DNA of 64,000 nucleotides from Chloroflexota bacterium (lineage in GTDB: Bacteria; Chloroflexota; Limnocylindria; Limnocylindrales; CSP1-4). The notes beneath the pieces are model-generated. The model ran no database searches. It was not told the DNA's origin and saw only the letters and a list, made by a program, of their open reading frames with translations. The position numbers and the translations under genes were made by a program. This document shows, one piece after another, positions 19,208-57,243 of this stretch (positions are counted from its first letter, which is position 1; each line of letters begins with the position of its first letter). The stretch lies in the NCBI GenBank assembly GCA_003158675.1, contig PMKN01000089.1, positions 77,932-141,931 on the forward strand, given 5' to 3'.

Positions 19208-19213
19208 CGCTAC

Positions 19214-32491: not shown

Positions 32492-32493
32492 TG

Positions 32494-38598: not shown

Positions 38599-38715
38599 TC
38601 TTGAATAGGCACTGGTCAGTCTACCCGAGTGTCCGCCGGGGCGACCATGGGTCGCCCGCTCTTCCGCCCCGTCCAAAGGGCACGCGCACACCAGGGTTTC
38701 TGCCACAATCAGCGG
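38599..38715. promoter_or_regulatory. divergent promoter region between the GT2 operon (-) and the gmd-fcl-wzx-methyltransferase operon (+)
   Basis: 117-bp gap between divergent start codons. Confidence 0.3.
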
Positions 38716-40709
<1,994 letters not shown>

Positions 40710-40810
40710 ACACCTCTCGCCGCGGCCCAACTCCACCCGGCGAGAATCCCGCCGCGGCACGGGCCGACGACTTCGCCTCCGTCAACCTGGCTTCACTCGA
40801 CTCCCCGCCC

Positions 40811-42382
40811 GTGCCCGCCGATGGGCAGACGGCGTTCCCGCCTGAAATCGATCCAGGCATCGCTGCGGAGCCCGAGCCCGGCTATGACGGCGGGGCACTC
40901 ATCACGGCATCGACGCTCACGCTGATCTCGTCGGCGACCGGCCTGGTCATCGGGTTACTCCGGTCGAAGCTGGTGGCCGTCCTGGTCGGAAGCAAGGGCG
41001 TTTCGATCCTCTCGAACCTCAACATCTACAACGCCTTCGCAGCCACCGCCGGAACCGCCTTTGCGGGCCCGGGCTCGACTCGAGCCATTGCCGCCGCGAG
41101 GGCAGAGGGACGCGACGAGCGGGTGGACTGGCTGATCCGCTACAGCTTCCTGGTTCCGCCGGCTATCGGCCTGCTGATTCTGACGGTCACCGTGGTCTTC
41201 GCTCAGCAGATCTCAGGTCTGGTGATGGGCGACACCCAGTACGCCGATCTGGTTGCCATATCTGCGGTAGCAATTCCACTGACCCTTCTCGGGGCCTCCT
41301 ACGCCGGGGTTCTCCAGGGGTTCATCCGAATCGGGTCCCTGGCCAAGGCGAGCATCGCGACGACGCTCGTCTCGCTCATCGTCACTGTGGCATTCGTGCT
41401 GGCCTTCGGCCTGAGAGGAGCAATCGTCGCCACCTCCATCGTCGCCCTGGTGCAGGTAGGCATCTTCCTGCTGCGCGAGCCCTGGGTGGTACGAGAGCGT
41501 CGCTGGCGCCGTCGACTGAGCTTCGATTGGGCCGCCTTGCACCCAGTCCTTCAGCTCGGGCTTGCCAGCGTGGCCCTGACCGTCGCAAGCACGCTGGTGG
41601 CTCTGCTGATCCGGAGCGACATCGTCCGCGTGGTGGGGCTGGAGCAGAACGGCGTCTACCAGCCCGTGGCGGCGATCTCGGACACCTACCTCGAGTTGCT
41701 GATTTCGTCGACTTCCTTCTACCTGTTCCCGCGGCTGACGGAACTTCTGAGCGCCGGCCGCCGGACCGACGCCTCTGCCGAAGTCGGGCACGGCTTGCGA
41801 GTGATCCTGGCCGTCACGGTGGTATTGCTGCTGCTCGCGATCGCCTTTGGCGAGCCGATCGTGGTCCTGTTGTACTCGGACCAGTTCCGCGGGGCTGCCG
41901 ATCCGCTGGCGATCCAGATGACGGGCAACATCCTGAAGGTGGTCATCTGGTCGGCCAGCGCGGCCCTCCTTCCGCTGGGGTACTACCGCGCCTGGCTCGT
42001 GCTCGGCCTGTGCCATCTCGCGATCAAGTATTTCGGGACGCATCTGCTTCTGCCGGGCATGGGCCTGGACGGCGTGGCCGTCGCCTATGACCTGGCCTGG
42101 GCATTCACCTTCCTGGCCGAGGGTTTCCTGGTCGTGGCCGTCATCAAAGTCGGGCCGCGCTGGCACGACTGGCAGCGCGCCATCATCGCCGCTGCGCTCG
42201 TGGTCTTCACCTTCGGTGCCCATTCCCTCAACCACGGCCTGGGCATGCTCGCGGCCGTCGCGGCGCTCCTCGCCTGGCTCGCAGTTTCGCGCGCGGATCT
42301 CGTGGATCTGGCTCGGACGCTCAGCGGACTGGCCCGGCCGCGCCTGCAGGCGCTCCGTCGTGGGGGCGGTCCCGGCGAGTAA
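40811..42382 (+). CDS. polysaccharide biosynthesis protein / Wzx-like flippase (MOP superfamily), second copy
   Basis: About 12-14 TM helices with Polysacc_synt-like topology. The start is uncertain: first in-frame GTG after the fcl stop is 40811; the track start 40556 would overlap fcl by 150 bp. Confidence 0.55.
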   Translation: MPADGQTAFPPEIDPGIAAEPEPGYDGGALITASTLTLISSATGLVIGLLRSKLVAVLVGSKGVSILSNLNIYNAFAATAGTAFAGPGSTRAIAAARAEGRDERVDWLIRYSFLVPPAIGLLILTVTVVFAQQISGLVMGDTQYADLVAISAVAIPLTLLGASYAGVLQGFIRIGSLAKASIATTLVSLIVTVAFVLAFGLRGAIVATSIVALVQVGIFLLREPWVVRERRWRRRLSFDWAALHPVLQLGLASVALTVASTLVALLIRSDIVRVVGLEQNGVYQPVAAISDTYLELLISSTSFYLFPRLTELLSAGRRTDASAEVGHGLRVILAVTVVLLLLAIAFGEPIVVLLYSDQFRGAADPLAIQMTGNILKVVIWSASAALLPLGYYRAWLVLGLCHLAIKYFGTHLLLPGMGLDGVAVAYDLAWAFTFLAEGFLVVAVIKVGPRWHDWQRAIIAAALVVFTFGAHSLNHGLGMLAAVAALLAWLAVSRADLVDLARTLSGLARPRLQALRRGGGPGE

Positions 42383-42440
42383 GCTTGTCAATCCCAGGAC
42401 GCGATCTGACGCGACTGGAGTAGTGCGAGGCTCCATGTAG

Positions 42441-43280
42441 ATGCGGACACGTGCAAGGTTCGGCAACCTCGTCGCGCACCTAAAGGGCGCCGCGCCCGGC
42501 TCGAGAGGGTCCAGCATCACCGACCGGGACGAGTACCAGTCCTTCTGCCAGCGCGCGGCGACCGACGATGCGGTCTTCGCCAGGTTTCGCCGGGCGCCCG
42601 TATACGTGGACACACTCGAGCATGTGACACGCGAGCAGGGCGCCGCCTACATAGAGGCAATTCGCAGAGATAGCCCGGACCTTCTGACGGACCCGGCGCG
42701 TCTGTACCACGTCAACGACAAGCTGGGCACGCCGCTTCTCTACGAGTACGAGGCCACGGGGCCGGTTTCGCCCGTGACCCTGCGTTACCTGAAGGTCGTG
42801 TCCGACCTGCGGCTGCTCTTCGGGGACCTCTCCAGGCTCGACATCGTCGAGATTGGCGTCGGCTATGGAGGCCAATGCCGCCTCATCACGCAGTACTGGC
42901 CCGTCGGCTCCTACACCTTGATCGACCTCGCCCCGGCGCTCGCGCTCGCGCGCAGATACCTGAGCGGGCTCGCCACAGACGCAGAACTTAGATTCGAAGC
43001 GCCCGACCAGGTCCAGGCGGGGTCGTACGACCTGTGCATCAGCAACTACGCCTTCTCGGAATTGACCAAGCCCGTGCAGCAGTCCTACGCGGATGCGGTG
43101 GTCTCCCGGTCCGAGCGAGGCTACATGACCTGCAACTTCGTCAGCGACATCTTCAAGATCGAGTCGATGGATAGAGCAGAGCTCACGGCGCTCCACGCGG
43201 GGACCCGCTGGCTGCCCGAAGAACCCCTTACCCACCCCAAGAACTCAGTCCTCGTCTGGGGAACACGCGATCCGGCATAG
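42441..43280 (+). CDS. putative sugar O-methyltransferase (class I SAM methyltransferase)
   Basis: Motif I IVEIGVGYGGQCRLI; acidic post-I LIDLAP; motif II YDLCISNYAFSE. Confidence 0.6.
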   Translation: MRTRARFGNLVAHLKGAAPGSRGSSITDRDEYQSFCQRAATDDAVFARFRRAPVYVDTLEHVTREQGAAYIEAIRRDSPDLLTDPARLYHVNDKLGTPLLYEYEATGPVSPVTLRYLKVVSDLRLLFGDLSRLDIVEIGVGYGGQCRLITQYWPVGSYTLIDLAPALALARRYLSGLATDAELRFEAPDQVQAGSYDLCISNYAFSELTKPVQQSYADAVVSRSERGYMTCNFVSDIFKIESMDRAELTALHAGTRWLPEEPLTHPKNSVLVWGTRDPA

Positions 43281-43291
43281 GAGCCGAGCGG

Positions 43292-44947
43292 CTAAGACCC
43301 CTCGGGCGCACCATCTGTCGCCCCGCGGCGCCTCGAATGAACGGCCGTCCCGATCCGCGACCGCAGGAGCCTGGCTCGAACGATCGGCCAGCGCCGGAGT
43401 CTGCGATCCCACCGATACACGGACGGGTGGTTCCGGCTCATCTGGTCCCGCAGCTCGGCATCGTGCACGAGAGCGTCCGAGTACATCGACCCTTCACGGA
43501 CGCGGTACTCGAACAGCGGCTCGGGAATGCGCCGGGCGACGTAGCCGCGTTCCACCGCCCCGACCCAGAAATCCCAGTCCTCGTAGCCGTAGACCATGTT
43601 CGGGTTGTAGCCGCCCACCGCTTCCCAGACCTCCCGCCGGTATAGCGAGCAGTAGCCCAGGTAATTGACCGCGGGCAAGATCGTCGGATTGAACTCTGCC
43701 ATCTGGATGACACCGTCGGCGCCACCGAACCTGCGGTGGTCCGCATACGCGATGGCGATGCCGGGCTGCTCTTCCAGGAGGCGGTAAGCCCGTTCCAGCA
43801 TCGTGGGAGCAATTCGATCGTCCGCGTCCAGAGGGAGGACGTAGGAGCCGCGCGTCTTCTCGATTCCGGCGTTCCTGGCGCGGGCCAGACCAGCATTGGC
43901 CTGGCGTACGACTCTGATGTGTCTCTCGGGATGGAGCCTTGCCAGCTCGTCTGCGACCTGCCCCGTGGCGTCCGGGCTGCCATCGTCGACGATGACCAGC
44001 TCCCAGTCGGTGAACGTCTGAGCGAGGACGCTTTCGACCGCCTCCGGCAGGAACTCGGCCTGCTTGTAGCAGGGAATGACGATCGAGATCGCGGGGACGT
44101 CGGATCGCTGGGTGAAGACGAACGGCAGGTCCTCATGGGCCGCGTTCGCCACGTGATCCCGATAGTGCGCGATATCGAGGCGGCGGCCTTTGCCGAACTC
44201 CCGAGCCAGCGACTCCGCACTCAGCTCAGGGCGACCGTTGGCGCGGTTGGTCCAGGCCGATTGCACGAGGTTGGCGGGCACGCTCAGGGCCACGGACTGC
44301 TCATAGCACGCAAGGTGCGGCAGGTGTTCCCGGAACTCGCCCTCCCGGGCCGCCAGGGCGGCTTCCAGAGTGTTCGGGTTTCGGTAGGGCAGGGATTCAA
44401 GGAGAGGCAGAAGGTCGGCGGTCCGATACATGGACGAAGAGACCTCGATCGGATAGCCGAAGTCGTGTTCCATGCCCGGCCAGTTGAACCGGAGGACGCC
44501 AGGGGCCGCGGACCGGAAGTCCGGCGGGTTCTGGGGCTTGTCCATGGTGTAGCAATAGGTCGTGTTGCGTCCCAGTCGGAAGGAGAAGCCGATGCAGGCC
44601 GGGTCGTCCTCCAGGATGGACGTTGCGGTCGCGAGCGAAGCGTCGCCCACGAATAGCGTGTCGTCCACCACGAACAGAGCGAATAGCGACCCGGCGACCA
44701 GCTCGACGAGATCTCTCTTGAAGTCGTCCTCTCGCCGGAACTCCACGTCGGGGTGGTCCAAGCCCACGATCCGGTACTGCGCCGCGAATAGCGGCGTCGT
44801 TGCTGCATAGAGGACGGTTACGCGGGCCAGCCCGAGGTCACTGACGTTCAGGTCGAGCGACGCCAGGGCCGCGTCAAGCTGGAGCGGCCGGTTCTTGCTG
44901 AAGACGACACAGGCGATCTGGGGATCGCCCGGCTTGCCATTGGCCAC
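43292..44947 (-). CDS. two-domain glycosyltransferase (N-terminal GT-A domain + C-terminal GT2 domain)
   Basis: N-terminal domain: IACVVFSKNRPLQL...VVDDTLFV. C-terminal domain: ISIVIPCYKQAEFL...VIVDDGSPDAT...LDADD...YGYEDWDFW. Only 12 bp separate it from the convergent methyltransferase gene. Confidence 0.7.
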   Translation of the reverse strand: MANGKPGDPQIACVVFSKNRPLQLDAALASLDLNVSDLGLARVTVLYAATTPLFAAQYRIVGLDHPDVEFRREDDFKRDLVELVAGSLFALFVVDDTLFVGDASLATATSILEDDPACIGFSFRLGRNTTYCYTMDKPQNPPDFRSAAPGVLRFNWPGMEHDFGYPIEVSSSMYRTADLLPLLESLPYRNPNTLEAALAAREGEFREHLPHLACYEQSVALSVPANLVQSAWTNRANGRPELSAESLAREFGKGRRLDIAHYRDHVANAAHEDLPFVFTQRSDVPAISIVIPCYKQAEFLPEAVESVLAQTFTDWELVIVDDGSPDATGQVADELARLHPERHIRVVRQANAGLARARNAGIEKTRGSYVLPLDADDRIAPTMLERAYRLLEEQPGIAIAYADHRRFGGADGVIQMAEFNPTILPAVNYLGYCSLYRREVWEAVGGYNPNMVYGYEDWDFWVGAVERGYVARRIPEPLFEYRVREGSMYSDALVHDAELRDQMSRNHPSVYRWDRRLRRWPIVRARLLRSRIGTAVHSRRRGATDGAPEGS

Positions 44948-45113
44948 GAGGGCGCTCCTGAAGGGCGCGAGACGGGCGCGGTGACATCAACGCTGAGGCG
45001 CTCAAGAATAGCGCACGGGTCGCCGGCCAAGTCGACGCGCGACCCACCGCGCCCGGCCAGCTCGGTGGCGTTCAGTCACGAGCGGGCCGCCCAGGTGCTA
45101 CCGTTCCCGAGCC

Positions 45114-46634
45114 ATGAGACCCGAGAGCGGCGCCCGGCCGTACCCCGAGGTGGCGGCCCTTGCCGCACGTATTGCTTCGCTCGAGGGGCTTTCCGCCATC
45201 CTGGACGTGGGCTGCTCGTGGACTCCTGAGATCGCCATCCTCCACCCAAAACTCGACGTCGTAGGCGTCGGGCAACGGGGCTCGGAGGGGCGCCGCCCGC
45301 CGGGATTCCCATTTCGATCCTACGTGGACCTAGATGCGGACTCCGGAGCCCGCCAACTCGCGCGGCTCGATCCGGCGCGGAGTGTCGTCATGCTGACCGT
45401 TCCGACGGGGTCGCTCCCCGACCCGGCCAGGGGACTGGCCGCCCTGGACCCCTTCATCCGGCACGCGCCGGTGACAATCGTCGCGACCACCACTCCGGAA
45501 CCCGTGGCTGGCCTTCTCGCGGCCGCGAAGCTGACGCCCTCGTTCGTCGGCCAGACCCGCGCAAGCGAGCAAGACGAAGACAGGACCGCGACTCTGCTCG
45601 TGGTCGATCGCTCGCTGAAGGACGCCGCTCCCGCGCCCGAGACATTCCGCGTGGTGGCGATCATGACCGCCTACAACGAGGAGGATGTCATCGGGCCGTG
45701 CATCGGCAAGCTCGTCGGCGACGGCGTGGGCGTGTACCTCATCGACAACTGGTCGAATGACGGCACATACGCCGTCGCCGAGCAGTTCCGGGGCAGAGGC
45801 CTGGTCGGCCTTGAGCGGTTCCCCGACGCCCCCACCGATCGTTACGAGTGGCGATCCCTCCTTCGGCGCGTGGAAACTGTCGCTGCCGGCCTGGACGCGG
45901 ACTGGTGCATTCACCACGACGCCGACGAGCGTCGCTGCGGGCCGTGGCCTGGCGTGGGGCTACGCGACGCCATGTGGCGGGTGGACCAGGCCGGCTTCTC
46001 TGCCGTGGATCACACGGTCCTCAACTTCCGACCGACCGACGACGGCTACGAACCCGGTGGCGACTTCGAGGCCTACTTTCGCGGCTTCGAATTCGGCCGC
46101 TCGGCGGGCCTGCTCCTGCAGATCAAGGCGTGGAAGAATTCCGGTCTGATCGACCTGACCAGCGAGGGCGGTCACGAGGCGCGGTTCCCGGGCCGCCGCG
46201 TCTTCCCCTACAAGTTCGAGCTCAAGCACTATCCGATTCGGTCTCAGTCTCACGGCGAGCAGAAGATCTTCCGCGATCGGGTCGCGCGCTGGGATCCGCA
46301 GGAGCGTGCGATCGGCTGGCACGCTCATTACAACGACGTTCGACCTCGGCAATCCTTCTTGCATTCCGGTCTGGGTCTGATCGAGGATCTCGGCCTGGAG
46401 ACTCGGGCCAGCTACATGCCGGAGTTCTTGGCCGGCGCGGGTCTGGCTCGGTCGGTTCCCCGCTGGGCGCTGGGAAGTTGGGCCGGGCGCACCCTGTACC
46501 TGTCGGCCAGCCGCTTCGGGCGGAGCCGAGCCTACGCTCACCTGCGCCGGCTCCCGCTTCTTCGGGTAGGCGTAATCCGCAGGACGCTGCGGCGGCTGCG
46601 GCGGCGGCTGGCCGGGAGCGGTGCGGAACAGTAA
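45114..46634 (+). CDS. GT2 glycosyltransferase with N-terminal Rossmann-like (degenerate methyltransferase-like) domain
   Basis: N-terminus: ILDVGCSWTPEIAIL...VVGV (motif-I-like but lacking the second Gly). C-terminus: GT2 (FRVVAIMTAYNEEDVIG...IDNWSNDGT...HHDADE). Confidence 0.55.
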   Translation: MRPESGARPYPEVAALAARIASLEGLSAILDVGCSWTPEIAILHPKLDVVGVGQRGSEGRRPPGFPFRSYVDLDADSGARQLARLDPARSVVMLTVPTGSLPDPARGLAALDPFIRHAPVTIVATTTPEPVAGLLAAAKLTPSFVGQTRASEQDEDRTATLLVVDRSLKDAAPAPETFRVVAIMTAYNEEDVIGPCIGKLVGDGVGVYLIDNWSNDGTYAVAEQFRGRGLVGLERFPDAPTDRYEWRSLLRRVETVAAGLDADWCIHHDADERRCGPWPGVGLRDAMWRVDQAGFSAVDHTVLNFRPTDDGYEPGGDFEAYFRGFEFGRSAGLLLQIKAWKNSGLIDLTSEGGHEARFPGRRVFPYKFELKHYPIRSQSHGEQKIFRDRVARWDPQERAIGWHAHYNDVRPRQSFLHSGLGLIEDLGLETRASYMPEFLAGAGLARSVPRWALGSWAGRTLYLSASRFGRSRAYAHLRRLPLLRVGVIRRTLRRLRRRLAGSGAEQ

Positions 46635-46737: not shown

Positions 46738-49700
46738 ATGCCCGTGTTCCGTCGCCGTTTCGCGACCATTGCCTCGCTTGCCGTGCTTGCAGCAGCGACC
46801 CTTCTGCCCGGCGGAGCCACGCGCTCCCTGGCAGCCGCCGCCTCGTACGGACCGAGCTCGATGGTTCTGTCTGAGTTCGACAAGGCGGGGGAATGGCTGT
46901 CAGGTTCGAGCAGCGGCACGCTGACCACGGTCACGTCGCCAAAGACGTCTGGCAGCGGCGCGCTCAAGATCGACTACAACCTGACCAATGCCACCAGCGT
47001 CAGCATCCAGCAATTTGGAACGCCGCCCGAGCTACCGGGGCTGGCGAGGCACGTCTCTCTCGACGTGTACGGCGACGGCAGCTGGAACGTGGTCTACTTC
47101 GAGATCCGCGACGCAACCGGAGAGATCCTTCGCTACTGGGTGGGGAACATCAGCTTCACGGGCTGGCAGACGATGTCTGTGGACATCGGGTCGGCGGTTC
47201 CCGTGTCCGGGCTCGACGGCAACGCGGACAAGGTTCTGGACCTGCCCGGATCCTTCAGCCAGCTGGTCATCTACAAGAACAACGGCGCCAAGGCACTCGT
47301 ATCGACGATCTACGTCGACAGACTGACGTATGAGTACGACCCGAACGGGGCCACCGCCGATACGCCGATCTTCGTTCCGTCCGCCGGTGGCTCTTCGGTC
47401 GTTCGAGTTTCCCTGGCAGACCAGGGCCAGTTCAACCTGCGTCTCACCGACGAGGCGGGCCGGTATCGGACGTTCGCGGGGACCGCCGGCAATGGATCCG
47501 ACTGGTCGGCTACGTGGGACGGTCTGGACGACGCCGGCAACATGATGACGGGGTCCGTCAGGGGGAGCCTGATCGTCGCCCGATCGACCAAAGCCATATA
47601 CCAGCTCCCCTACTTCGCCGGATTGCCGGCGCGACCGGCCGGCAGCAATCCCGCCTTGCGCGGAGTCAACTCCTTCCTCACGGAGATCGACACCGCCAGC
47701 CGAGCCAAAGCCGAGCAAGAGGCCCGGCTCATGGAGTCGGACTACCTTGGCATGGCGCGCGAGGAGTTCGAGTGGAAGCGCGTCGAGCCCGTCCAGAGCG
47801 ATTTCGAGTGGGCCAAGTTCGACCAGGCCGTCGCGATCGAGAGCGCTCACGGGATCGGCATCCTCGGCAAGCTGGTCTACGGATCGCCGTGGGACAACTC
47901 GGCTCCGAAGGGCACGCCGCTTGCAACCGCGCTCATGTACCCGCCGTCCGACATCTATCCGTTCGTGGACTACGCCGTCGCGACCGTCCACCGATACAAG
48001 GACAAGGTCCACTATTGGGAGATCTGGAACGAAGAGAACCAGTCCGGGTTCTGGAAGCCGCAGCCCAATGCGGCCCAATACACGCAGGTGTTGATGGCGA
48101 CCTACCGGGCCATCAAAGCCGAGGACCCGACGGCCACGGTGGTGCTGGGCGGCCTGTCGACCGGCCCCGACTCGACCTTCCTCAAAGGCATCAAAGACGC
48201 CGGCGGCTGGGACTACTTCGATGTCCTGGCCATCCACAGCTACGTCACCGGCAAGCCGGATGGAAGCGCCTACGAGCGCTGGATCACCGACGCCAAGAAC
48301 ATCGTGGCGTCATACGGTTCCAAGCCGATCTGGATCACCGAATACGGTTGGAGCAGCTATAGCGGCGGCACGACGACCGCCAACCAGAGCGCCTACTTGA
48401 TGCGGTCGTACGAGATCGCGGCAGCTGCCGGCGTAGCGGGCAACTTCTGGTTCGAGTTCGTGAATCGGGGCGCCAATACCTCGGACGTCTACCAGAACTG
48501 GGGGATCTTGAACTCCGACCTGTCCCCCAAACCCGCATACAGCGGCTTCGGGTGCGAGGCCCAGGCCATCTACGCTGGTGGATTGCCCAACTGTTCGGGC
48601 TCCGCGCCACCCACGCCTCCGGCGCCGCCCGCACCCACGCCTCCCTCGCCTCCGGCGCCCACGGATCCGCCCACGCCAAGCACCTACCCCGATAGCACGT
48701 TCACAGGGCTCAAACCGACCCGGTTGCTCGACACGAGAATCGGTCTGGGCTTGAGCGGCGCATTCACCGCCGGCACGCCGCGAACGTTCAAGGTCGCAGG
48801 CGATCTGGGCGGAAGCCTCGGAACGGTCGTTCCGAGCACGGCGATCGCCGTCACCGGCAATCTGACCGTGACTGCCGAGACTGCCCGCGGCTACGTCTTC
48901 CTCGGGCCGCAGGCGACCTCGACCCCGGGATCGTCCACCATCAACTTCCCGGCCATGGACAACCGAGCCAACGGCGTGACCGTGCCACTGGCGTCGGACG
49001 GGTCGCTGAGCGCCGTCTACATCGCCCCTGGCGGCGCCACTGTCCACGTCGTCTTCGACGTCACAGGCTATTTCGACCCGGGCACGAACGGCGCCTTCTA
49101 CGTGGCGGTTCCGCCCGTGAGACTCCTCGATAGCCGGATCGGCAACGGCCTCTCGGGTGAATTCGTCAGCAAGGTCCCGCGCACGTTTGCCGTCGCCGGC
49201 CGCCAGGATGCCAGCGGCAACGTGGTCGTGCCTGCGGACGCGCTCGCGGTGACGGGCAATCTGACGATCACCGGCCAGACGACGAACGGGTACGCCTACA
49301 TCGGGCCGGATTCGACCGGGAATCCAACCAGTTCCAGTGTGAACGCGCCCGCTCTCGACAACCGCGCCAACAACGTTGTCGTGGCCCTGGACTCGACGGG
49401 CTCCTTGAGCGTGGTATTCGTGGGCCCGAACGGGTCGAAAGCTCACCTCGTCTTCGACGTGACGGGCTACTTCACCAAGTCCGGCGGGTGGACGTACGTC
49501 CCGGCGACCCCAACCCGGTTGCTCGACTCGAGGTCGGGCAACGGCGCCAGCGGGGTCTTCACCAGCCACGTCCCGCGTGGTTTCGGCGTCATCGATCGCG
49601 GACCGGTTCCGCACGGCGCCTTGGCAGTGACCGGCAACCTCACCGTGACGAGCCAGACGGCCAAGGGGTTCGGGTTTGCGGCCCCATCCACAACGGCGAA

Positions 49701-49857
49701 CCCCGGGTCGTCGACGATCAACTTCCCCGTGGGTGACAACCGCGCCAACGGAGTCTCCCTGCAACTATCGTCGACGGGCACGCTTTCGATCGTCTACGTG
49801 GCAGGCGGCGGCGCCACAACGCACTTCATCTTCGACGTCACGGGCTACTACCACTAG
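46738..49857 (+). CDS. secreted multidomain glycoside hydrolase (clan GH-A TIM-barrel) with N-terminal beta-sandwich domains, Pro-rich linker and three C-terminal ~132-aa tandem repeats
   Basis: Signal peptide MPVFRRRFATIASLAVLAAATLLPGGATRSLAAAA. GH-A acid/base motif HYWEIWNEEN and nucleophile motif IWITEYGW. Linker PPTPPAPPAPTPPSPPAPTDPPTP. Three repeats each start xRLLD(T/S)R and end DVTGY(F/Y). Confidence 0.75.
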   Translation: MPVFRRRFATIASLAVLAAATLLPGGATRSLAAAASYGPSSMVLSEFDKAGEWLSGSSSGTLTTVTSPKTSGSGALKIDYNLTNATSVSIQQFGTPPELPGLARHVSLDVYGDGSWNVVYFEIRDATGEILRYWVGNISFTGWQTMSVDIGSAVPVSGLDGNADKVLDLPGSFSQLVIYKNNGAKALVSTIYVDRLTYEYDPNGATADTPIFVPSAGGSSVVRVSLADQGQFNLRLTDEAGRYRTFAGTAGNGSDWSATWDGLDDAGNMMTGSVRGSLIVARSTKAIYQLPYFAGLPARPAGSNPALRGVNSFLTEIDTASRAKAEQEARLMESDYLGMAREEFEWKRVEPVQSDFEWAKFDQAVAIESAHGIGILGKLVYGSPWDNSAPKGTPLATALMYPPSDIYPFVDYAVATVHRYKDKVHYWEIWNEENQSGFWKPQPNAAQYTQVLMATYRAIKAEDPTATVVLGGLSTGPDSTFLKGIKDAGGWDYFDVLAIHSYVTGKPDGSAYERWITDAKNIVASYGSKPIWITEYGWSSYSGGTTTANQSAYLMRSYEIAAAAGVAGNFWFEFVNRGANTSDVYQNWGILNSDLSPKPAYSGFGCEAQAIYAGGLPNCSGSAPPTPPAPPAPTPPSPPAPTDPPTPSTYPDSTFTGLKPTRLLDTRIGLGLSGAFTAGTPRTFKVAGDLGGSLGTVVPSTAIAVTGNLTVTAETARGYVFLGPQATSTPGSSTINFPAMDNRANGVTVPLASDGSLSAVYIAPGGATVHVVFDVTGYFDPGTNGAFYVAVPPVRLLDSRIGNGLSGEFVSKVPRTFAVAGRQDASGNVVVPADALAVTGNLTITGQTTNGYAYIGPDSTGNPTSSSVNAPALDNRANNVVVALDSTGSLSVVFVGPNGSKAHLVFDVTGYFTKSGGWTYVPATPTRLLDSRSGNGASGVFTSHVPRGFGVIDRGPVPHGALAVTGNLTVTSQTAKGFGFAAPSTTANPGSSTINFPVGDNRANGVSLQLSSTGTLSIVYVAGGGATTHFIFDVTGYYH
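48716..49857 (+). repeat. 3 x ~396-bp tandem direct repeats, in-frame and coding, within the glycoside hydrolase gene
   Basis: Repeat starts at about 48716, 49114 and 49510. Repeats 1 and 3 begin with near-identical DNA (acccggttgctcgac...). Confidence 0.7.
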
Positions 49858-49916: not shown

Positions 49917-51161
49917 TTATCCGCGGGCGGCGAGTCCGAAGCGTTCGGCAGCTGCCTCAGCCAGCCAGCCGCCGATGGCCAGTGAGGCCGTAGCGGCGGG
50001 CGAGGGCGCGTTCTGGACCTGCAGGACATGGGCGGACCCGCCCACCGCGAAATCGTCGACCATCCGGCCCCTGGCGTCGATCGCCTGAGCCCGGACGCCC
50101 GACGGCCCGGGCAGAAGATCGTTCGAGGTCAACTCGGGCACGTATCGCCTCAGCGCGGCAGTGAACGATCGCTTCACGTAATCGCGCCACATCTCGCCCA
50201 CGCCCATCCGGGCATTGCGCATCGCGACGCGCACGAATCCGGAATAGGTCAGCGTGCCGAGCAAGTCCCGGACGTTGACGTCGCGCCGCCGATAGCCCTC
50301 GCGGGCGAACGCCAGGACGGCGTTCGGGCCGGCCCAGACCTCGCCCTCGATGCGCCTCGTGAAGTGGACGCCGAGGAACGGGAAGGCGGGATCGGGCACG
50401 GGGTACAGGAGCCCGCGGATGAGCTTTCGCGACTCGGGCCGCAACACGTAATAGTCGCCGCGAAATGGCACGATTCGAGGTCCTGGTGTGCCGGTCATAT
50501 CCGCCAATCTGTCGGCCTGAAGGCCCGCACAGACGATTACGTCGCGAGCTCGGATCGGCCCTCGAGTCGTTTCCACCACTCGATCCGACCCGGACTCGAC
50601 GATCTTGCGGACCTCGCGGCCCAGCAGGAGATCGCCGCCTCGCCGGCCGATCTCGGCGGCCAGCGCCTCGGCCACCCGGGCGAAATCGATCACGCCAGTC
50701 GTGGGCGACCAGAGGCCGAGTATGCCCGCGGAGTGGGGTTCCAGTTCGCGGATTCGGGACCGGTCCACCACCTCGATCTGAGGTACGAGGTTGGCGGTGG
50801 CCCTCCGTTCAAGCTCCCTTAGGCGCGGCACTTCGGCCTCGTTGAGGGCGACGATCAGCTTCCCGCACCGATCGAACGGGATCTCGTGTGCTTCCGCGAA
50901 TGCCTCGACCTCGGCCTTGCCGCGGCGGCACATCTCCGCCTTTTTCGAGCCGGGGGCGTAGTAGACGCCCGCATGCAGGACGCCTGAGTTGTGCCCGGTT
51001 TGGTGGATCGCGACGGCATCTTCTTTGTCGATGACCGCGAGACGCAAGGCCGGATAGGCGCCCAGCAGTTTGTACGCGGTCGCGAGCCCAACTATCCCGG
51101 CCCCGACAACGACGACGTCGTATCCGGCCGGTCGTGCCTCAACGGGATCAGTAGCTGACAT
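49917..51161 (-). CDS. FAD-dependent oxidoreductase, L-2-hydroxyglutarate oxidase/dehydrogenase (LhgO)-like
   Basis: GYDVVVVGAGIVGLATA (FAD Rossmann) and the signature HQTGHNSGVLHAGVYY. Confidence 0.75.
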   Translation of the reverse strand: MSATDPVEARPAGYDVVVVGAGIVGLATAYKLLGAYPALRLAVIDKEDAVAIHQTGHNSGVLHAGVYYAPGSKKAEMCRRGKAEVEAFAEAHEIPFDRCGKLIVALNEAEVPRLRELERRATANLVPQIEVVDRSRIRELEPHSAGILGLWSPTTGVIDFARVAEALAAEIGRRGGDLLLGREVRKIVESGSDRVVETTRGPIRARDVIVCAGLQADRLADMTGTPGPRIVPFRGDYYVLRPESRKLIRGLLYPVPDPAFPFLGVHFTRRIEGEVWAGPNAVLAFAREGYRRRDVNVRDLLGTLTYSGFVRVAMRNARMGVGEMWRDYVKRSFTAALRRYVPELTSNDLLPGPSGVRAQAIDARGRMVDDFAVGGSAHVLQVQNAPSPAATASLAIGGWLAEAAAERFGLAARG

Positions 51162-51228
51162 CCACTCCACTCCGGACCGCGCCCGCATCTTCCGGCGGCC
51201 AGCTAGCCCTGCTGATCAGCCTGGGCGG

Positions 51229-51798
51229 TCAGCGGTATCGGAAGTTCTGCGCCTCGGGCCTGGCCAGCCATTCGGCCAGAGTCTGCGCCTGGTCGTCCTT
51301 GGCAGAGAGCAAAGGCTCGCTCACCGGCCACTCGATACCGATGGCGGAGTCGTTCCACCGGATCCCCGATTCTCCGGCCTTGTTATAGACGCCAGTCGTG
51401 AGGTACTCGATTTCGGCCGTCTCGGAGAGCACGCAGAAACCTCTGCCGAAGCTCGCCGGAGCCCACAGCAGGCGGGGCTCGTCGGACGACATCTCCACCC
51501 CGACCCACCTGCCAAGCGTGGGCGACTCGACCCGCAGGTCGACGGCGACGAGGAACGCCCGACCCTGGATTACCCGCATCAGCTTGCCCATCGGCGGATC
51601 CCACTGGAAGTGCACGCCTCGAACCACGTTCCGGCTGGATCGGGAATGGTTGAGCTGGACGAACTGGGAGGGCAGGCCGAGCTGGGCGAAGAGATCCTGA
51701 CGGTAGACCTCCATGAAGAACCCTCGATCGTCCCGGAACACCTCCGGAATGACGATCAGCGGACCATCGAGTTCCGTCTTTTCGATCTCGAACTTCAT
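51229..51798 (-). CDS. rmlC: dTDP-4-dehydrorhamnose 3,5-epimerase
   Basis: 189 aa cupin. GPLIVIPEVFRDDRGFFMEVY...RGVHFQ...LWAPASFGRGFCVLSETAEIEY. Confidence 0.9.
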   Translation of the reverse strand: MKFEIEKTELDGPLIVIPEVFRDDRGFFMEVYRQDLFAQLGLPSQFVQLNHSRSSRNVVRGVHFQWDPPMGKLMRVIQGRAFLVAVDLRVESPTLGRWVGVEMSSDEPRLLWAPASFGRGFCVLSETAEIEYLTTGVYNKAGESGIRWNDSAIGIEWPVSEPLLSAKDDQAQTLAEWLARPEAQNFRYR

Positions 51799-51834
51799 CG
51801 TGTCCTCTGGATGCTGTTGGGTCAGTTCTTTCGC

Positions 51835-52977
51835 CTAGACATGCCGGCCCCTCTTGCGAGCCACCTCGCGGAAGAACGCGTCGTGCTTGTCGGCGACCGA
51901 GTCCCAGGTGTAAAACTCGCCGATCCTGGCTCGGGCGGCCTCGCCCAAGGCCCTTGCCTGGTCCGGGTTGGAGTCCGCCCATCTGATCTGCTCGGCGAGC
52001 GACCCTGGCTCCGGTGTGAAGTAGCGTCCCGTGTCAGCCAGGTTTTCCGAGTTGAACTCGGTGTCCAAAGCTATGACCAGGTTGCCGCAACCCATGGCCT
52101 TGAGAAGAGCCGGGTTGGTCCCGCCGACCTCATGCCCGTGAAGATAGCCATAGGCTCCGAGATGGAGGCTCTCGATCAGGCCCGGCCCATAGATCGGACC
52201 GAGGAACCGGACGCGGCTGCCCTTTGCTATCTCCTGCAGGTGCTCCCAGAACGGCGTCTCGTAGTTCATCCCGCCCGCGATGATCAGCTCCTTGTCGGAG
52301 CCGGAGGCGATGAACTCGCGGACGATGACGTCGATGTTGTTCTCGGGCTCGATCCGGCAGGCCACGATGTAGTACTGGCCCTCGACAACGCCATGCTCGT
52401 CGAGAACCTCCTGCTTCATGTCCGATCTATCCAGCGTGTAGGCACCGTTGGTGATGTAGCGGGAATCGCGGCCGTACGTCCGCAGGAAGTACTGACGGAT
52501 CGCCTCGGCGTCGGAGACCAGCTCCTGAGCCGCGAGCCTAGTCACTATCCACTCGGCTTTGTGGAGGTAGGCCCTACCGAACCGGCTCCACTTGCGCCGG
52601 CGCCACTCCAGCCCGTCGGTGTTGTCGATCACGAGTCGCCGAGTCAACCGCACCGGCACGTACAAGGGGGCTCCGCGGTAGCCGAGGAAGTAGTAGAGAT
52701 CGAATCTGCGGCGCATCGAGTCCACGATGGACGAGAACTCGTGCGAGAGCTGCTCGAGCGTCCTGCTCCGGAGCGCCGGCGTGTGGATCAGCCGGACCCC
52801 CTTGTACTCATGGAGCACCTGCCCGGCCGTGTAGCCCTTGCGGCAATACACGGTGACCTCGTGGCCGCGTTCGACGAGACGGGGCGCCAGCTCCTGGGCA
52901 AAAGTCTCGAATCCGCCGTAGCCCGCAGGTATGCCGCGGCTGCCGATGATGGCGATTCGGAGACCGGTCTTGGTCAA
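51835..52977 (-). CDS. GT4 glycosyltransferase with DUF1972-type N-terminal domain (RgpA/GacB-like putative rhamnosyltransferase)
   Basis: LRIAIIGSRGIPAGYGGFETFAQEL is the hallmark DUF1972 N-terminus; GT-B C-terminal half. Adjacent to rmlC and rmlD. Confidence 0.65.
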   Translation of the reverse strand: MTKTGLRIAIIGSRGIPAGYGGFETFAQELAPRLVERGHEVTVYCRKGYTAGQVLHEYKGVRLIHTPALRSRTLEQLSHEFSSIVDSMRRRFDLYYFLGYRGAPLYVPVRLTRRLVIDNTDGLEWRRRKWSRFGRAYLHKAEWIVTRLAAQELVSDAEAIRQYFLRTYGRDSRYITNGAYTLDRSDMKQEVLDEHGVVEGQYYIVACRIEPENNIDVIVREFIASGSDKELIIAGGMNYETPFWEHLQEIAKGSRVRFLGPIYGPGLIESLHLGAYGYLHGHEVGGTNPALLKAMGCGNLVIALDTEFNSENLADTGRYFTPEPGSLAEQIRWADSNPDQARALGEAARARIGEFYTWDSVADKHDAFFREVARKRGRHV

Positions 52978-53849
52978 GCCGTCTTCACCTGGGCCGGTTC
53001 GGGCCGGCTAGCGAGATACCACTGCAACGCGTCCTCCCAGCTCCGACTTGCCGGCAAGCCCAACCGGGCGGTCTTTGTGTCCAGCAGAGTAGACCACCGC
53101 GGTCGACGAACGACGCCCTCGCCCGTGGCTCTGGGCGAGACATCCGCCTGCACACCTGCCATATGGAGCGCCGTCCGTGCCAGCAGGTACCAGGAACACG
53201 ATCCGCCGTTCGCCACGTGGTAGGTGCCTGGGGGCACGCGGCGCTCCAGGAGAAGGAGGATCCGCTCGGCCATGTCGTGAGTCGAAGTGGGAGAGAAGAT
53301 CTGATCGTCGACTATCGAGAGTGGCTGGCCAGTCTTGGCCCTGGCGATCATGTTGTCGACGAAGTTGCCGCCCTTGCCGGCGCTGCCCGCGTGCCCGAAT
53401 AGCCCCGAGCCCCGAACGATGAGCGAATCGGGAGCCGCCTCTCGAACGGCTGCCTCGCCCGCCGCCTTGGATACGCCGTAGACGTTGAGGGGACGGACTT
53501 CATCGTCCTCCGCGCAACCATCCGGACGATCGCCGGCGAAGACGTAGTCGGTGCTCACGAACACGCACTGCGCACCCGCGGATCGTGCGGCCCGCGCCAC
53601 GTTGAGAGCCCCGAGGGTGTTTACCTCGAACGCCCGGCGCGGTTCTTCCTCGCACAGTTCGACTTTGTGAAAGGCCGCCGCATTGATCACCGCATCGGGC
53701 CGAGCGCCGCCGATTAGGCTTTGCGTCGCGGCACCGTCGACGACGTCGAGTTCGCCGTGACGAGGGCGGACGACCTCATGAGCGGACCCGGCGACCGCGG
53801 CAAGATCCGAGCCGAGCTGACCCCAGCCTCCGACGACAAGTACCTTCAT
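52974..53849 (-). CDS. rmlD: dTDP-4-dehydrorhamnose reductase
   Basis: ATG 53849 (MKVLVVGGWGQLGSDL...); catalytic YGVSKAAGE. The track ORF is over-extended to 54341. ATGA overlap with the upstream SDR gene. Confidence 0.85.
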   Translation of the reverse strand: MKVLVVGGWGQLGSDLAAVAGSAHEVVRPRHGELDVVDGAATQSLIGGARPDAVINAAAFHKVELCEEEPRRAFEVNTLGALNVARAARSAGAQCVFVSTDYVFAGDRPDGCAEDDEVRPLNVYGVSKAAGEAAVREAAPDSLIVRGSGLFGHAGSAGKGGNFVDNMIARAKTGQPLSIVDDQIFSPTSTHDMAERILLLLERRVPPGTYHVANGGSCSWYLLARTALHMAGVQADVSPRATGEGVVRRPRWSTLLDTKTARLGLPASRSWEDALQWYLASRPEPAQVKTA

Positions 53850-54964
53850 GACTCGGCGAGGGCAGCCGTAGGGCGATTGGCTCCGTCGTTTGGCTGGCGG
53901 CTCGAGCCGCCTTTGCCATGGGGTTTGGACAGCACGTAGCCATGCTTGCCCACGATCTCGACCGCCTCCTCGAGAAGCTTCATCCAGTCGATGTTGTAGT
54001 AGCGCGGATTGCTGTAGTCCGTGTACCCGTGCAGGTTGATCTGCTCGACCATGCGGGCGATCGACTCCTCGACCGTAACCTCCGGGTGGAAGCCGAGCAC
54101 GCGAGCGGCCTTCGCGCCGGACACGCGGTAGCTCCGGACCAGGCGATAGGTGAAGTCGACATCGACCTTGACCGGAATGCCCAGCTCCATCAGGGAAGCC
54201 TGCGCCCGCAAGGCTAGTTCGGAGATCCGGAAGTTGCCGGTGACCAGATTGAAGATCTGGCCGCTCACGACCTTCTCGGGCACCTGCAGCGCCATCACAT
54301 AAGCTCTCGCGACGTCGCGGACCTCGACGAGAGGACGCCACATCGCGCCGCCGTGATGAACCGTGATCACTCCGCGCGAGAGAGCGTCCTTGACGAAGGT
54401 ATTGAGCACGAGGTCGTAGCGCATCCGGGGCGAAAAGCCGAAGACCGTCCCCTTGCGGAACACGACGGGCGCAAACGAGTCCGTGGCCATTGGCAGGATT
54501 GCCCGTTCGGCCGCGAGCTTGGACGTGGCGTAGGCAGCTCTGGGCTCGACCGGCGATTCCTCATCCAGGAGCACGTCCTTGCTGTCGTCGCCGACGCCGC
54601 GGTCGTAGATGGAACCCGAACTTGCGAAGATCAGCCGAGGCACGCCCGCTCGCTTCGTCACTTCGGCGACGCGGATTGAGGCCTCGGTGTTCATCTCGCG
54701 GTTGGCTTTGGGATTGAACTCAGCCGTCGGGTCGTTGGAGAGGCCGCCAAGATTGATGACCGCCGTGGCGTCCTCCACGTGGGCAGCATCGAAGTCCCGC
54801 ATGTCGGCATCGATCAGCTCGACACGGTCGAGGAAGCCTCTCGCGGGCTCCCGACCGAAGAACATGCGATCCACGACTCGGACGCTGAAACCCATGGCCA
54901 GCAGTTCCTCGACGAGTACGCAACCGACGTACCCGCCACCGCCGACCACAACGACTTTGCTCAT
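53846..54964 (-). CDS. NAD-dependent sugar epimerase/dehydratase (SDR family)
   Basis: MSKVVVVGGGGYVGCVLVEEL...; catalytic YATSKLAAE. It could supply 4-epimerase or 4,6-dehydratase activity for the rhamnose branch; no rmlA or rmlB is recognisable in the window. Confidence 0.75.
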   Translation of the reverse strand: MSKVVVVGGGGYVGCVLVEELLAMGFSVRVVDRMFFGREPARGFLDRVELIDADMRDFDAAHVEDATAVINLGGLSNDPTAEFNPKANREMNTEASIRVAEVTKRAGVPRLIFASSGSIYDRGVGDDSKDVLLDEESPVEPRAAYATSKLAAERAILPMATDSFAPVVFRKGTVFGFSPRMRYDLVLNTFVKDALSRGVITVHHGGAMWRPLVEVRDVARAYVMALQVPEKVVSGQIFNLVTGNFRISELALRAQASLMELGIPVKVDVDFTYRLVRSYRVSGAKAARVLGFHPEVTVEESIARMVEQINLHGYTDYSNPRYYNIDWMKLLEEAVEIVGKHGYVLSKPHGKGGSSRQPNDGANRPTAALAES

Positions 54965-55079
54965 GCCCGCTCCGGTTCTGGCCCGCAACCGCACACACCC
55001 GCGCGGTCGACATCGGGCGCAAGACATTCTACGGCGCAGGAACGGAACGCACCGGCCCAAGTCAGCGCTGCCGAGCCCG

Positions 55080-56225: not shown

Positions 56226-56287
56226 CGGCCGAGATTATCACGCCCCACCGCCGAGCCGCGGACGGCTCGTCCGTCTACCCTTCCCCC

Positions 56288-57196: not shown

Positions 57197-57243
57197 CCGA
57201 ACGAGCTGCCGGGTCGCTGGGAAGTACCTTCGACTCGGCCCGA

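Follow-up and report, generated by a model that had tools for sequence, protein, structure and literature searches.

A PslG-like glycanase in a Chloroflexota polysaccharide island carries a triplet of jelly-roll repeats that may act as a cell-envelope anchor

The window analysed here, a stretch of 64,000 nucleotides from a Chloroflexota bacterium (contig PMKN01000089.1, positions 77,932 to 141,931), encodes within a polysaccharide biosynthesis island a protein that joins a PslG-like GH39 catalytic domain to three C-terminal repeats of a very large family, sequenced yet uncurated. Sister enzymes carry three CWB2 repeats in the same slot. We hold it somewhat more probable than the contrary that the protein is a wall-tethered endo-glycanase of the PslG branch acting on the polymer of its island, with the triplet serving as a general envelope anchor.

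The open reading frame at 46738..49857 (+) was confirmed: it starts with ATG, encodes 1039 aa, has a coding-type GC3 of 0.85 and is preceded by GGAGG 4 nt 5' of the start codon. Public databases already hold a 100 % identical protein (P0121) from a 311-kb metagenome contig, under the name 'hypothetical protein'. A promoter and terminator scan around the gene detected nothing, an outcome that is uninformative for this organism. The N-terminus has an RRR n-region followed by a hydrophobic core (aa 8-27), the sole hydrophobic segment of the protein, and a SLAAAAS cleavage-type motif; from the sequence we infer the cleavage site and the export route (Sec versus Tat). There is no LPXTG-type sorting signal in the protein, the two LAVTG strings lying inside a conserved repeat strand, and with neither that motif nor a C-terminal hydrophobic tail, sortase anchoring is ruled out. 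Sequence, hydropathy and pLDDT bear out the signal peptide, the Pro-rich linker and the lack of LPXTG described in an earlier note on this DNA.

That note had also read about 290 aa of beta-sandwich-like domains near the N-terminus, and AF2 gives about 260 aa of all-beta structure there with pLDDT above 90 (Table 1). The first domain, a jelly-roll with weak Pfam matches to FlaA (E 3.5e-5) and CBM_11 (E 0.009), is found in all tiers of the enzyme family regardless of the C-terminus, and across 72 homologues its D125, E129 and W143 never vary; it is a probable glycan-binding domain belonging to the enzyme proper. The second matches FlgD_ig weakly (E 0.005), with a stronger match in homologues.

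Table 1. Features of the glycanase and its island, in window coordinates
Feature	Residues (aa)	Nucleotides	Strand	Basis
Signal peptide region	1-35	46738..46842	+	Sequence, hydropathy; pLDDT below 50
Beta-jelly-roll, FlaA/CBM11-like	36-201	46843..47340	+	AF2 all-beta, pLDDT above 90; weak Pfam matches
Ig-like beta-sandwich, FlgD-Ig-like	205-296	47350..47625	+	AF2 (pLDDT above 90); Pfam FlgD_ig, weak
(beta/alpha)8 catalytic domain, PslG-like GH39 relative	300-615	47635..48582	+	phmmer, Foldseek, Pfam, AF2
Acid/base	E432	48031-48033	+	After beta-4 (strand 426-429), in N431-E432
Nucleophile	E535	48340-48342	+	Within beta-7 (strand 531-537)
Disordered Pro-rich linker	622-648	48601..48681	+	Sequence APPTPPAPPAPTPPSPPAPTDPPTPS; AF2 pLDDT 33-40
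Repeat 1	653-781	48694..49080	+	HMM i-E 3.8e-48; AF2
Repeat 2	786-913	49093..49476	+	HMM i-E 5.6e-47; AF2
Repeat 3 (stop codon one residue further)	920-1038	49495..49851	+	HMM i-E 1e-47; AF2
WecA/MraY-type transferase, two LytR-CpsA-Psr (LCP) ligases, two Bac_transf initiating transferases		14606..22214	.	Pfam
Upstream context: Wzm/Wzt ABC exporter, GT4/GT2 glycosyltransferases, methyltransferases, DegT aminotransferase, GDP-mannose 4,6-dehydratase, epimerase/reductase, Wzx-like flippase		26377..46634	.	
Downstream context: FAD oxidoreductase, RmlC, RmlD, GT4/GT2 glycosyltransferases, two Wzy-like polymerase/ligase proteins		49917..63999	.	

The catalytic domain has the features of clan GH-A: a (beta/alpha)8 barrel, modelled by AF2 as eight alternating beta/alpha elements with pLDDT mostly above 90, an acid/base glutamate in an Asn-Glu pair after strand 4 (within WEIWNEEN, from aa 427), and a nucleophile glutamate at strand 7 (within ITEYGW, from aa 533). 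The clan GH-A assignment of the earlier note is confirmed, and the family that it had left open can be narrowed to a GH39 relative of the PslG branch. In phmmer searches of the PDB, 5jvk (E 1.4e-22) and PslG (E 2.4e-22) matched over about 270 residues, whereas canonical GH39 beta-xylosidases reached only E 4e-6 to 1e-4 and xylanases E 1e-3 or worse. Every top Foldseek match was a GH-A barrel, with E-values of 1e-17 to 1e-19 (5jvk, E 1.2e-19; PslG, E 6.9e-18, TM 0.64-0.66 on the target). The WNE and TE(Y/W)GW motifs align with PslG without a gap, and a single offset of +26 from chain indices 139 and 250 of the 416-residue construct places both catalytic glutamates on PslG E165 and E276, the residues changed in the inactive PslG variant (PMC4928890). 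W427, W430, N431, E432, E535 and W538 are invariant across the 72 homologues, contrary to the poor conservation of the catalytic glutamates that would have spoken against the earlier reading, and a C606/C619 pair at the end of the domain is conserved. Among Pfam models, Glyco_hydro_cc is over threshold (E 1.3e-7, 31.9 bits against 21), GH5 Cellulase is marginally so (23.8 against 23.5), and the GH39 model PF01229 stays below its gathering score (E 0.25, 10.5 bits against a cut-off of 26).

The neighbouring gene content bears out that the glycanase is encoded within a glycopolymer island, as the earlier note had it. The transferase and LCP block matches PF00953 (E 4e-26), PF03816 (E 8e-33 and 1e-30) and PF02397 (E 1e-67 and 2e-68), and judged by these families its genes are machinery attaching glycopolymers to peptidoglycan. 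A GT2-like gene lies immediately upstream of the glycanase gene on the same strand, and three orthologues in other genomes also sit among glycosyltransferase, Wzy, flippase and Rml genes, in differing gene orders. The gene of PslG itself sits in the biosynthetic operon of its own polymer, which PslG degrades (PMC4928890). This precedent and the placement of the orthologues support, by analogy, the earlier suggestion that the enzyme is tied to the locally encoded glycopolymer, and the cluster product would then be its substrate. We envisage a secreted, retaining, endo-acting glycanase of the PslG branch of GH39, held at the cell wall and dedicated, as PslG is, to the polysaccharide of its own island; it would probably trim, remodel or release a glycopolymer of the wall or surface, attached by LCP ligases and rich in sugars derived from mannose and rhamnose. 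Psl polymer has mannose and rhamnose, and the island for its part carries GDP-mannose and dTDP-rhamnose pathway genes.

Beyond the linker come the three tandem C-terminal repeats of about 132 aa that the earlier note had recognised, with cores at aa 659-779, 792-912 and 924-1038. RLLD(T/S)R starts at aa 662, 795 and 927, a period of 132-133 aa, and an HMM made from homologues finds each unit at an i-E of about 1e-47, far past chance. The repeats are 57-61 % identical in protein and only 57-63 % in DNA, and because this DNA identity is low, a recent duplication or an assembly artefact is ruled out. Position-wise orthology, each repeat being closest to its counterpart, is seen only with the nearest orthologue (P0122) and not in more distant proteins, and so neither supports nor opposes non-equivalence of the three units. 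Pfam and NCBIfam gave no match on the repeats even at E<=1; the CWB2 profile PF04122 had none on the target at that limit, the SLH profile had no Pfam match, and membership in SLH, LysM, CWB2, Ig or FN3 was rejected. A triplet profile run against PDB sequences returned only noise (nanobody, GAPDH; E>=0.12), and a full-text search for the motif strings returned only unrelated BMP peptides.

The isolated triplet is modelled by AF2 with pLDDT 93.8 and pTM 0.90, and there is no free linker between units, which are joined by hairpins, each built from the closing strand of one unit and the opening strand of its successor. Each unit is a beta-jelly-roll whose structural neighbours are CBM35, CBM36, CBM22 and CBM6, GH2 sugar-binding domains and a Bdellovibrio fibre adhesin tip. 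The Ig or fibronectin-type fold that would have counted against the earlier reading was thus not found, and no Ig or FN3 profile matches the repeats. About 43 of the 121 positions of a unit are at least 85 % conserved, many of them polar.

The repeat family has 32,091 representatives. The description of the repeats as an unrecognised new module stands insofar as they have no Pfam or NCBIfam name, but they are not peculiar to this protein. In 93 of 100 complete ORFs there are exactly three units, nearly always 1-5 aa from the stop, and one MAG has at least 12 triplet proteins. The partners are PKD (16), FN3 (11), subtilase (7), SpoIID (6), GH18 (5), GH25 (1) and Amidase_2 (1), the peptidoglycan-hydrolase fusions being known as counts without coordinates, together with beta-propellers, Kelch, RCC1 and phosphoesterase domains; by their family assignments, these are typical surface-protein domains and peptidoglycan hydrolases. 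In some cases (P0032, L065, L074 and L075) the triplet makes up the whole protein, and in others an N-terminal triplet precedes a C-terminal extension of about 228 aa (L020, L022, L028 and L055). These extensions had been considered as SpoIID domains, which was rejected as they have no Pfam match. A Paenarthrobacter RHS protein, a weak example, was matched by tblastn and missed by the repeat HMM.

Sister enzymes (P0139, P0140 and P0143) whose enzyme part is 48-56 % identical carry a CWB2 triplet, scoring E 1e-47 to 1e-56, right after the same conserved Cys...Cys loop, in the slot of the target's triplet. CWB2 triplets are experimentally demonstrated wall anchors that bind the wall polymer PSII and need all three repeats (PMC4973711). 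A further architecture comes from a phage protein, encoded between tail genes and a membrane protein, with a Cys-peptidase-like N-terminus and one terminal repeat unit. Its N-terminus has sub-threshold matches to NlpC/P60 (E 0.002) and a papain-like agglutinin (E 0.013) and found no homologues in a large protein search; PHROGs had nothing for this protein or two neighbours, and a search of INPHARED phage genomes gave no match. The 'endolysin' label therefore follows from gene position and motif only.

The most likely role of the triplet is to hold surface proteins at the cell wall. After export, the jelly-roll, Ig domain and barrel would form the enzyme proper, and the flexible Pro-rich linker would join it to a rigid body of three CBM-like beta-jelly-rolls. 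We suggest that this body is a general non-covalent cell-envelope anchor in monoderm Chloroflexota and Actinomycetota, working as the SLH and CWB2 triplets of Firmicutes do, with three units in one body recognising a wall glycan, on an unrelated fold. The earlier idea of a new non-covalent wall-binding module draws support from the CWB2 swap, the near-constant terminal triplet and the phage lysin-like protein; its novelty is limited by the family having been sequenced already, and the binding itself is something we infer. A wider version, which we put forward tentatively and at somewhat less than even chances, would place the triple jelly-roll beside SLH and CWB2 as a third and independent anchoring system of three repeats. 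It would be the principal means by which Candidatus Limnocylindria fix the proteins of their surface to a secondary wall polymer that is LCP-linked, and many Actinomycetota would use it as well; single units would have passed to phages as wall-binding domains of lysins, and the glycanase would be tethered to, or beside, the polymer it processes. Candidatus Limnocylindria are abundant, uncultured soil and peat Chloroflexota.

The triplet could instead be a set of substrate-targeting CBMs that concentrates the enzyme on its glycan, a reading we consider unlikely despite the CBM and GH2 folds closest to the repeats, their presence on several glycoside hydrolases (GH18, GH25 and the target) and the tandem CBMs that secreted glycanases often carry. 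Most partners are not carbohydrate-active and some proteins have nothing else; the copies are fixed at three and terminal, unlike variable CBM arrays; a dozen or more occur in one genome; and the enzyme keeps its own N-terminal CBM-like domain in all tiers, with an anchor, CWB2, filling the repeat slot in its sisters. The targeting and anchoring readings merge if the anchor's ligand is the polymer that the enzyme cuts. Self-assembly into an S-layer lattice or capsomer-like oligomer, displaying the N-terminal domains without direct wall-glycan binding, seems to us distinctly improbable: capsid matches are no better than CBM matches (TM about 0.16), the single unit of the phage protein suits binding better than a lattice, and the swap partner is a glycan-binding anchor (PMC4973711). 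That the repeats are an inert stalk we find very hard to credit. All-beta tandem domains are commonly spacers, and PKD and FN3 are frequent companions here, yet the fold is neither Ig nor FN3, conservation of polar residues is very strong although the units are just about 50 % identical, and a flexible Pro-rich spacer already precedes the triplet, whose three copies are fixed and terminal, so that nothing lies beyond them to space out.

The enzyme, for its part, might be nutritional or competitive, attacking exogenous polysaccharides such as plant hemicellulose or foreign exopolysaccharide, its location in the island being incidental. Weak Pfam similarity to GH5, GH10, GH53 and GH42 models, the source label endo-1,4-beta-xylanase on a homologue (P0186) and a soil or peat habitat, inferred from related MAGs, point that way. 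We give this little credence, as placement in biosynthesis clusters is kept in the three further genomes despite differing gene orders, no sugar-uptake or catabolic genes adjoin the glycanase gene in the island, and among characterised enzymes it is PslG (E 1e-22), associated with biosynthesis, that comes closest, not a xylanase.

Should the triplet be a wall anchor, a single HMM would delimit the surface proteome of a Chloroflexota class that is large, uncultured and abundant in the environment, with its proteases, glycanases, wall hydrolases and adhesin-like PKD/FN3 proteins. The HMM would also flag overlooked proteins of the wall in Streptomyces and other Actinomycetota, in which the question is accessible to tests in culture. 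It would be a third, structurally unrelated solution to the SLH/CWB2 principle of a three-repeat, pseudo-trimeric, wall-polymer-binding body. The family would give Pfam and NCBIfam over 30,000 protein clusters that they now lack, and the module might serve as a display or targeting tag or, in lysins, as the binding domain. The glycanase itself would carry the PslG model, in which the hydrolase is encoded among polysaccharide biosynthesis genes, beyond diderm exopolysaccharides to monoderm-type wall-linked glycopolymers, and offers candidate polymer-specific glycanases for dissecting monoderm-type walls.

Among known enzymes, PslG of Pseudomonas aeruginosa (GH39; PDB 4zn2, 5bx9 and 9g17) is the closest characterised relative of the catalytic domain, sharing the (beta/alpha)8 fold, both catalytic glutamates and a gene inside a polysaccharide biosynthesis cluster; the two are only about 21 % identical. 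In its diderm host, PslG has two domains and is held in the periplasm by an N-terminal transmembrane helix (PMC4928890), whereas the target, of 1039 aa, has a signal peptide of the cleavable type and, besides the C-terminal triplet, two further beta domains at the N-terminus, and its host is probably monoderm. The GH39 enzyme 5jvk of Bacteroides cellulosilyticus WH2 is the top match by sequence and by fold, yet is only 18 % identical, with another set of accessory domains; no biosynthetic-cluster link was established for it in the present comparison.

The repeats share their fold with the jelly-roll CBMs (CBM35, 36, 6 and 22) and GH2 sugar-binding domains at only 4-13 % identity. No Pfam CBM model matches them, and those families lack the fixed hairpin-linked triplet and the RxLDTR / NFPxxDxRAN / DVTGYF signature. 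The C-terminal domain of the Bdellovibrio bacteriovorus Bd2133 fibre (PDB 8ok3 and 8ond) resembles a repeat at the fold level only (13 % identity), and is a single domain on a trimeric fibre. With the CWB2 triplets of Clostridioides difficile cell-wall proteins the family has in common three tandem, non-identical terminal repeats, found on many different surface proteins per genome, wall hydrolases and proteases included; this is functional analogy, not membership. A CWB2 unit has about 90 aa and an alpha/beta fold, unlike the all-beta jelly-rolls of about 130 aa described here, which have no sequence relationship to it and occur in different phyla. SLH triplets (PF00395) form a pseudo-trimeric body that binds a secondary wall polysaccharide linked to peptidoglycan and serves to anchor surface proteins, those of the S-layer among them (PMC4973711). 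Their helical units of about 55 aa have no sequence or fold similarity to the all-beta repeats; what the two triplets share is the concept of three tandem units in one body.

The open reading frame at 46738..49857 (+) is a genuine gene: its product has 1039 residues, its GC3 of 0.85 is the codon-position pattern typical of a true gene in a sequence of 66% GC, and a GGAGG motif lies immediately 5′ of the ATG. The two catalytic motifs reported in the earlier note were located in it, WEIWNEEN starting at residue 427 and ITEYGW at residue 533. An AlphaFold2 model of the full-length hydrolase, with 72 homologues as input, has a mean pLDDT of 87.7 and gives the domain layout listed in the table. The protein's single hydrophobic stretch lies at the N-terminus and is of signal type, and inspection of the protein sequence revealed no sortase signal. 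The only cysteines, C606 and C619, flank a loop where the catalytic domain ends. They probably form a disulfide, as would fit a protein located outside the cytoplasm.

Features of the hydrolase, its island and the phage segment
Feature	Coordinates	Basis
Signal peptide, disordered	aa 1-35	AlphaFold2
Jelly-roll, weak FlaA/CBM11 similarity	aa 36-201	AlphaFold2 + Pfam
Ig-like sandwich, FlgD-Ig-like	aa 205-296	AlphaFold2
(beta/alpha)8 barrel	aa 300-615	AlphaFold2
C-x12-C loop closing the barrel	48553-48594 (aa 606-619)	
Pro-rich linker, disordered	aa 622-648	AlphaFold2
Three all-beta units	aa 653-1038	AlphaFold2
WecA/MraY-type transferase; two LCP ligases; two Bac_transf initiating transferases	window	Pfam
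Wzm/Wzt (Wzt_C domain), GT4 and GT2 enzymes, methyltransferases, DegT aminotransferase	window	
GDP-mannose dehydratase and epimerase/reductase; Wzx-like flippase	window	
RmlC, RmlD, further glycosyltransferases, two Wzy-like proteins	window	
Island ORF, 509 aa	9994-11526 (-)	
The two LCP ligase/initiating transferase pairs	16114-22214	
Island ORF, 552 aa	22279-23937 (+)	
Wzm, Wzt, methyltransferase-GT4 fusion	26377-30461	
Island ORF, 322 aa	33519-34490 (-)	
Wzx-like flippase	40556-42382	
FAD-dependent oxidoreductase	49917-51188 (-)	DAO family, E 9e-60
The two Wzy-like proteins	57244-58971, 62842-63999	
Tail genes, 325-aa ORF, 281-aa Cys-peptidase-like protein, C-terminal-TM protein	L085:3360-5959 (also L084)	

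With curated Pfam models, the barrel can be assigned to clan GH-A only in broad terms (Glyco_hydro_cc at E 1.3e-7; GH5, GH53 and GH42 marginal; GH39 not significant). A sequence search of solved structures puts the GH39 structure 5jvk from Bacteroides and PslG of Pseudomonas aeruginosa on top at E about 1e-22, with GH39 xylosidases far behind at 1e-4 to 1e-6 and GH10 xylanases likewise behind, and the top two Foldseek hits for the barrel are also 5jvk and PslG. In an ungapped alignment, N431-E432 and T534-E535 stand opposite the WNE and TEW motifs of PslG, and a single offset (+26) puts both glutamates on E165 and E276, the pair mutated for inactive PslG (PMC4928890). The model has E432 after strand 4 and E535 within strand 7, the defining geometry of clan GH-A, and the clan assignment first made from motifs holds. 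Both glutamates are invariant among 72 aligned family members, together with R341, E342, W427, W430, N431, H500 and W538, so the objection that the catalytic residues might not be conserved, which the earlier note had raised against its own assignment, fails.

The window is a dense island of genes for cell-surface polysaccharide. Because LCP enzymes join glycopolymers to peptidoglycan, the LCP ligases justify calling it a cell-wall glycopolymer island, and with the exporter, flippase, Wzy-like and Rml genes they bear out the setting that had been claimed for the hydrolase. The gene for PslG lies inside the psl operon and the enzyme breaks down Psl; hydrolases of this sort are found in many exopolysaccharide operons (PMC4928890). 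The hydrolase gene, too, sits within a polysaccharide-biosynthesis cluster, as do those of three orthologues (P0134, P0143 and P0155) from other genomes with differing gene orders. All three have GT4, Wzy, flippase, Rml and epimerase genes around them; P0143 also adjoins an LCP ligase and a Bac_transf gene. The pairing of hydrolase and cluster is kept across genomes. The enzyme adds a new member to an already known type, the PslG-like hydrolases found within polysaccharide clusters, and its substrate is probably a polymer encoded locally.

The Wzm permease, the Wzt ATPase with its Wzt_C domain of the glycan-terminus-binding type, and the methyltransferase-GT4 fusion protein suggest a glycan that depends on an ABC transporter and has a methyl cap at its end. 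Since Wzx-like and Wzy-like proteins share the island with this exporter, it probably encodes at least two polymers or assembly routes. Two consecutive divergent pairs, each of an LCP ligase (-) and a Bac_transf/CoA_binding_3 initiating transferase (+), look like a duplicated module for polymer initiation and wall ligation. The FAD-dependent oxidoreductase gene, unusual in sugar-polymer clusters, is convergent with the hydrolase gene and lies between it and RmlC. For three island ORFs with coding-type GC3 (509, 552 and 322 aa), Pfam gives no match at E≤1e-3 or 1e-4.

The three tandem repeats are as the earlier note described them: RLLD(T/S)R opens them at residues 662, 795 and 927, DVTGY(F/Y) closes them at 779, 912 and 1038, and Pfam and NCBIfam give no match on them even at E≤1. 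Their cores span 115-121 residues with a mutual identity of 57-61%, and the repeat is absent from every other gene of the window. DNA identity among the three is just 57-63%, so the triplication is old, and an assembly artefact is ruled out. AlphaFold2 models the isolated triplet (42 homologues) with a pLDDT of 93.8 and a pTM of 0.90, and pairs the last strand of one unit with the first strand of the next in a long hairpin; as this leaves no free linker between units, the triplet is predicted to form one rigid body, presumably of pseudo-trimeric geometry. About 43 of the 121 unit positions are ≥85% conserved though the units overall are only ~50% identical, a count made on units selected by motif positions, but those motif positions are independently invariant in alignment A1. 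Among the conserved positions are many polar residues: R662, D665, R667, N708, N736, D741, R743, N745, D774 and Y778.

This repeat family has been sequenced many times over, yet it is uncurated and uncharacterised. A two-unit query retrieved 1,322 proteins, mainly metagenomic and 'hypothetical', without a meaningful Pfam label; when 1.84 billion cluster representatives were searched exhaustively with a profile, 32,091 matched at E≤1e-3, and 10,729 of them reached E≤1e-30; and a full-text literature search with the repeat motifs found no description of the module. At least 506 triplet loci were confirmed in species-representative genomes. All but one of the best 80 come from MAGs of Chloroflexota, either Candidatus Limnocylindria or 'uncultured Chloroflexia', with many copies per genome; the exception is a MAG labelled Pleomorphomonadaceae. 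Such Chloroflexota MAGs supply the triplets closest to the hydrolase's, at 72-74% identity, which makes this lineage the probable origin of the window. Cultured Streptomyces and Curtobacterium also carry the module, again as three units, in proteins that RefSeq names after other domains (PKD, cutinase) or as hypothetical; one example is the PKD protein WP_331731233 of Streptomyces sp. NBC_01001, with three units. At three loci (L008, L029 at 2631-12010, and L034) triplet-protein genes stand head-to-tail in tandem arrays of three or four with differing N-terminal parts, which suggests local duplication with a diversified displayed domain. A 1,499-aa RHS repeat-associated core protein on the Paenarthrobacter ureafaciens conjugative plasmid pB (L086:5776-10275) matches the triplet near its N-terminus by tblastn (97% of triplet length, 29% identity, E 2e-10), but the repeat HMM did not pick it up; a similar RHS protein occurs in Curtobacterium CP126276. 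Bacillus WapA-type RHS toxins carry N-terminal wall-binding repeats, and the match, if real, would be a parallel to them.

Exactly three units are present in 93 of 100 complete repeat-bearing ORFs from the fetched loci, a count biased by the triplet query, but unqueried neighbouring ORFs and actinobacterial proteins obey the same rule. Almost invariably, 1-5 residues separate the triplet from the stop codon; in a minority it directly follows the signal peptide. The non-repeat parts of 101 proteins contain PKD (16), FN3 (11), subtilase (7), SpoIID (6), beta-propeller (5) and GH18 (5) domains as well as Kelch, phosphoesterase, RCC1, GH25, Amidase_2 and TIG domains, the repertoire of surface proteins, peptidoglycan hydrolases among them. 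One MAG encodes at least 12 triplet proteins, and some triplet proteins are nothing but signal peptide and triplet. A subgroup of triplet proteins has a signal peptide, then the triplet, then a conserved C-terminal domain of ~228 aa for which Pfam has no match (L020:7156-7833, L022:7150-7830, L028:7132-7818 and L055:7177-7863).

In the family to which the enzyme belongs, the triplet is present in the 23 closest members, and the next tier, with enzyme parts 48-56% identical, has three CWB2 wall-binding repeats (E 1e-47 to 1e-56) beginning straight after the same conserved Cys...Cys loop. The C606/C619 pair is kept in CWB2-type and Big_5-type relatives and is the exact exchange point of the C-terminal modules; more distant tiers end in a second FlaA/FlgD pair or Big_5 domains. 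The CWB2 motif is usually described for Firmicutes; the sister enzymes with three CWB2 repeats (P0139, P0140 and P0143, the last at L004:10001-12796) are MAG-derived. The three copies within P0139 and within P0143 are almost identical, implying that they were recently duplicated or homogenised within the protein. In the largest tier, at ~45% identity (P0146, P0155 at L005:10001-12871, P0171 and the Rathayibacter protein P0203), the enzyme's own N-terminal pair of FlaA-like jelly-roll and FlgD-Ig is repeated C-terminally in place of the anchor triplet, with a DATGE motif conserved in both copies.

On two viral contigs (L085 and L084), a 281-aa protein (L085:4533-5378) has one full-length unit as its C-terminus (HMM E 5.6e-26). 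The gene for this protein directly follows tail genes (PHROG E 2e-23 and 2e-46) and precedes that of a membrane protein. At the N-terminus the protein shows the DCxGF...H signature of a Cys-peptidase, with a sub-threshold NlpC/P60 match. It is built like an endolysin that carries a wall-binding domain, with a weak enzymatic assignment, and the segment is a candidate lysis cassette that would use the module to bind the wall. At 47-52% GC, the phage contig is not from the window's organism.

Taken together, the architecture rule, the partner domains, the exchange with CWB2, the phage protein and the conservation of the units favour the triplet as a non-covalent cell-envelope anchoring module that acts as a three-unit body. 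The triplet could instead be a set of ordinary substrate-targeting CBMs, but every tier of the family retains the enzyme's N-terminal CBM-like domain, an argument for localisation rather than substrate recognition as the role of the C-terminal slot; if the triplet's ligand were the polymer that the enzyme processes, the CBM and anchor models would merge. The same body of evidence is less consistent with a self-assembly or S-layer module, with an inert spacer, or with a nutritional role for the enzyme. The earlier proposal of a wall-binding module is supported indirectly by the swap, the architecture and the phage unit, from which we infer the wall binding itself.

The triplet fills the slot held in sister enzymes by three CWB2 repeats, and three tandem CWB2 repeats, all of them required, have been shown by experiment to anchor proteins to PSII, a wall polymer; in C. 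difficile they are carried by 29 proteins that include wall hydrolases and proteases (PMC4973711). Like SLH and CWB2, the triplet would be a three-unit anchor, although its fold is unlike either, making it a three-repeat wall anchor of a type already known in kind, here in a new, uncurated fold family.
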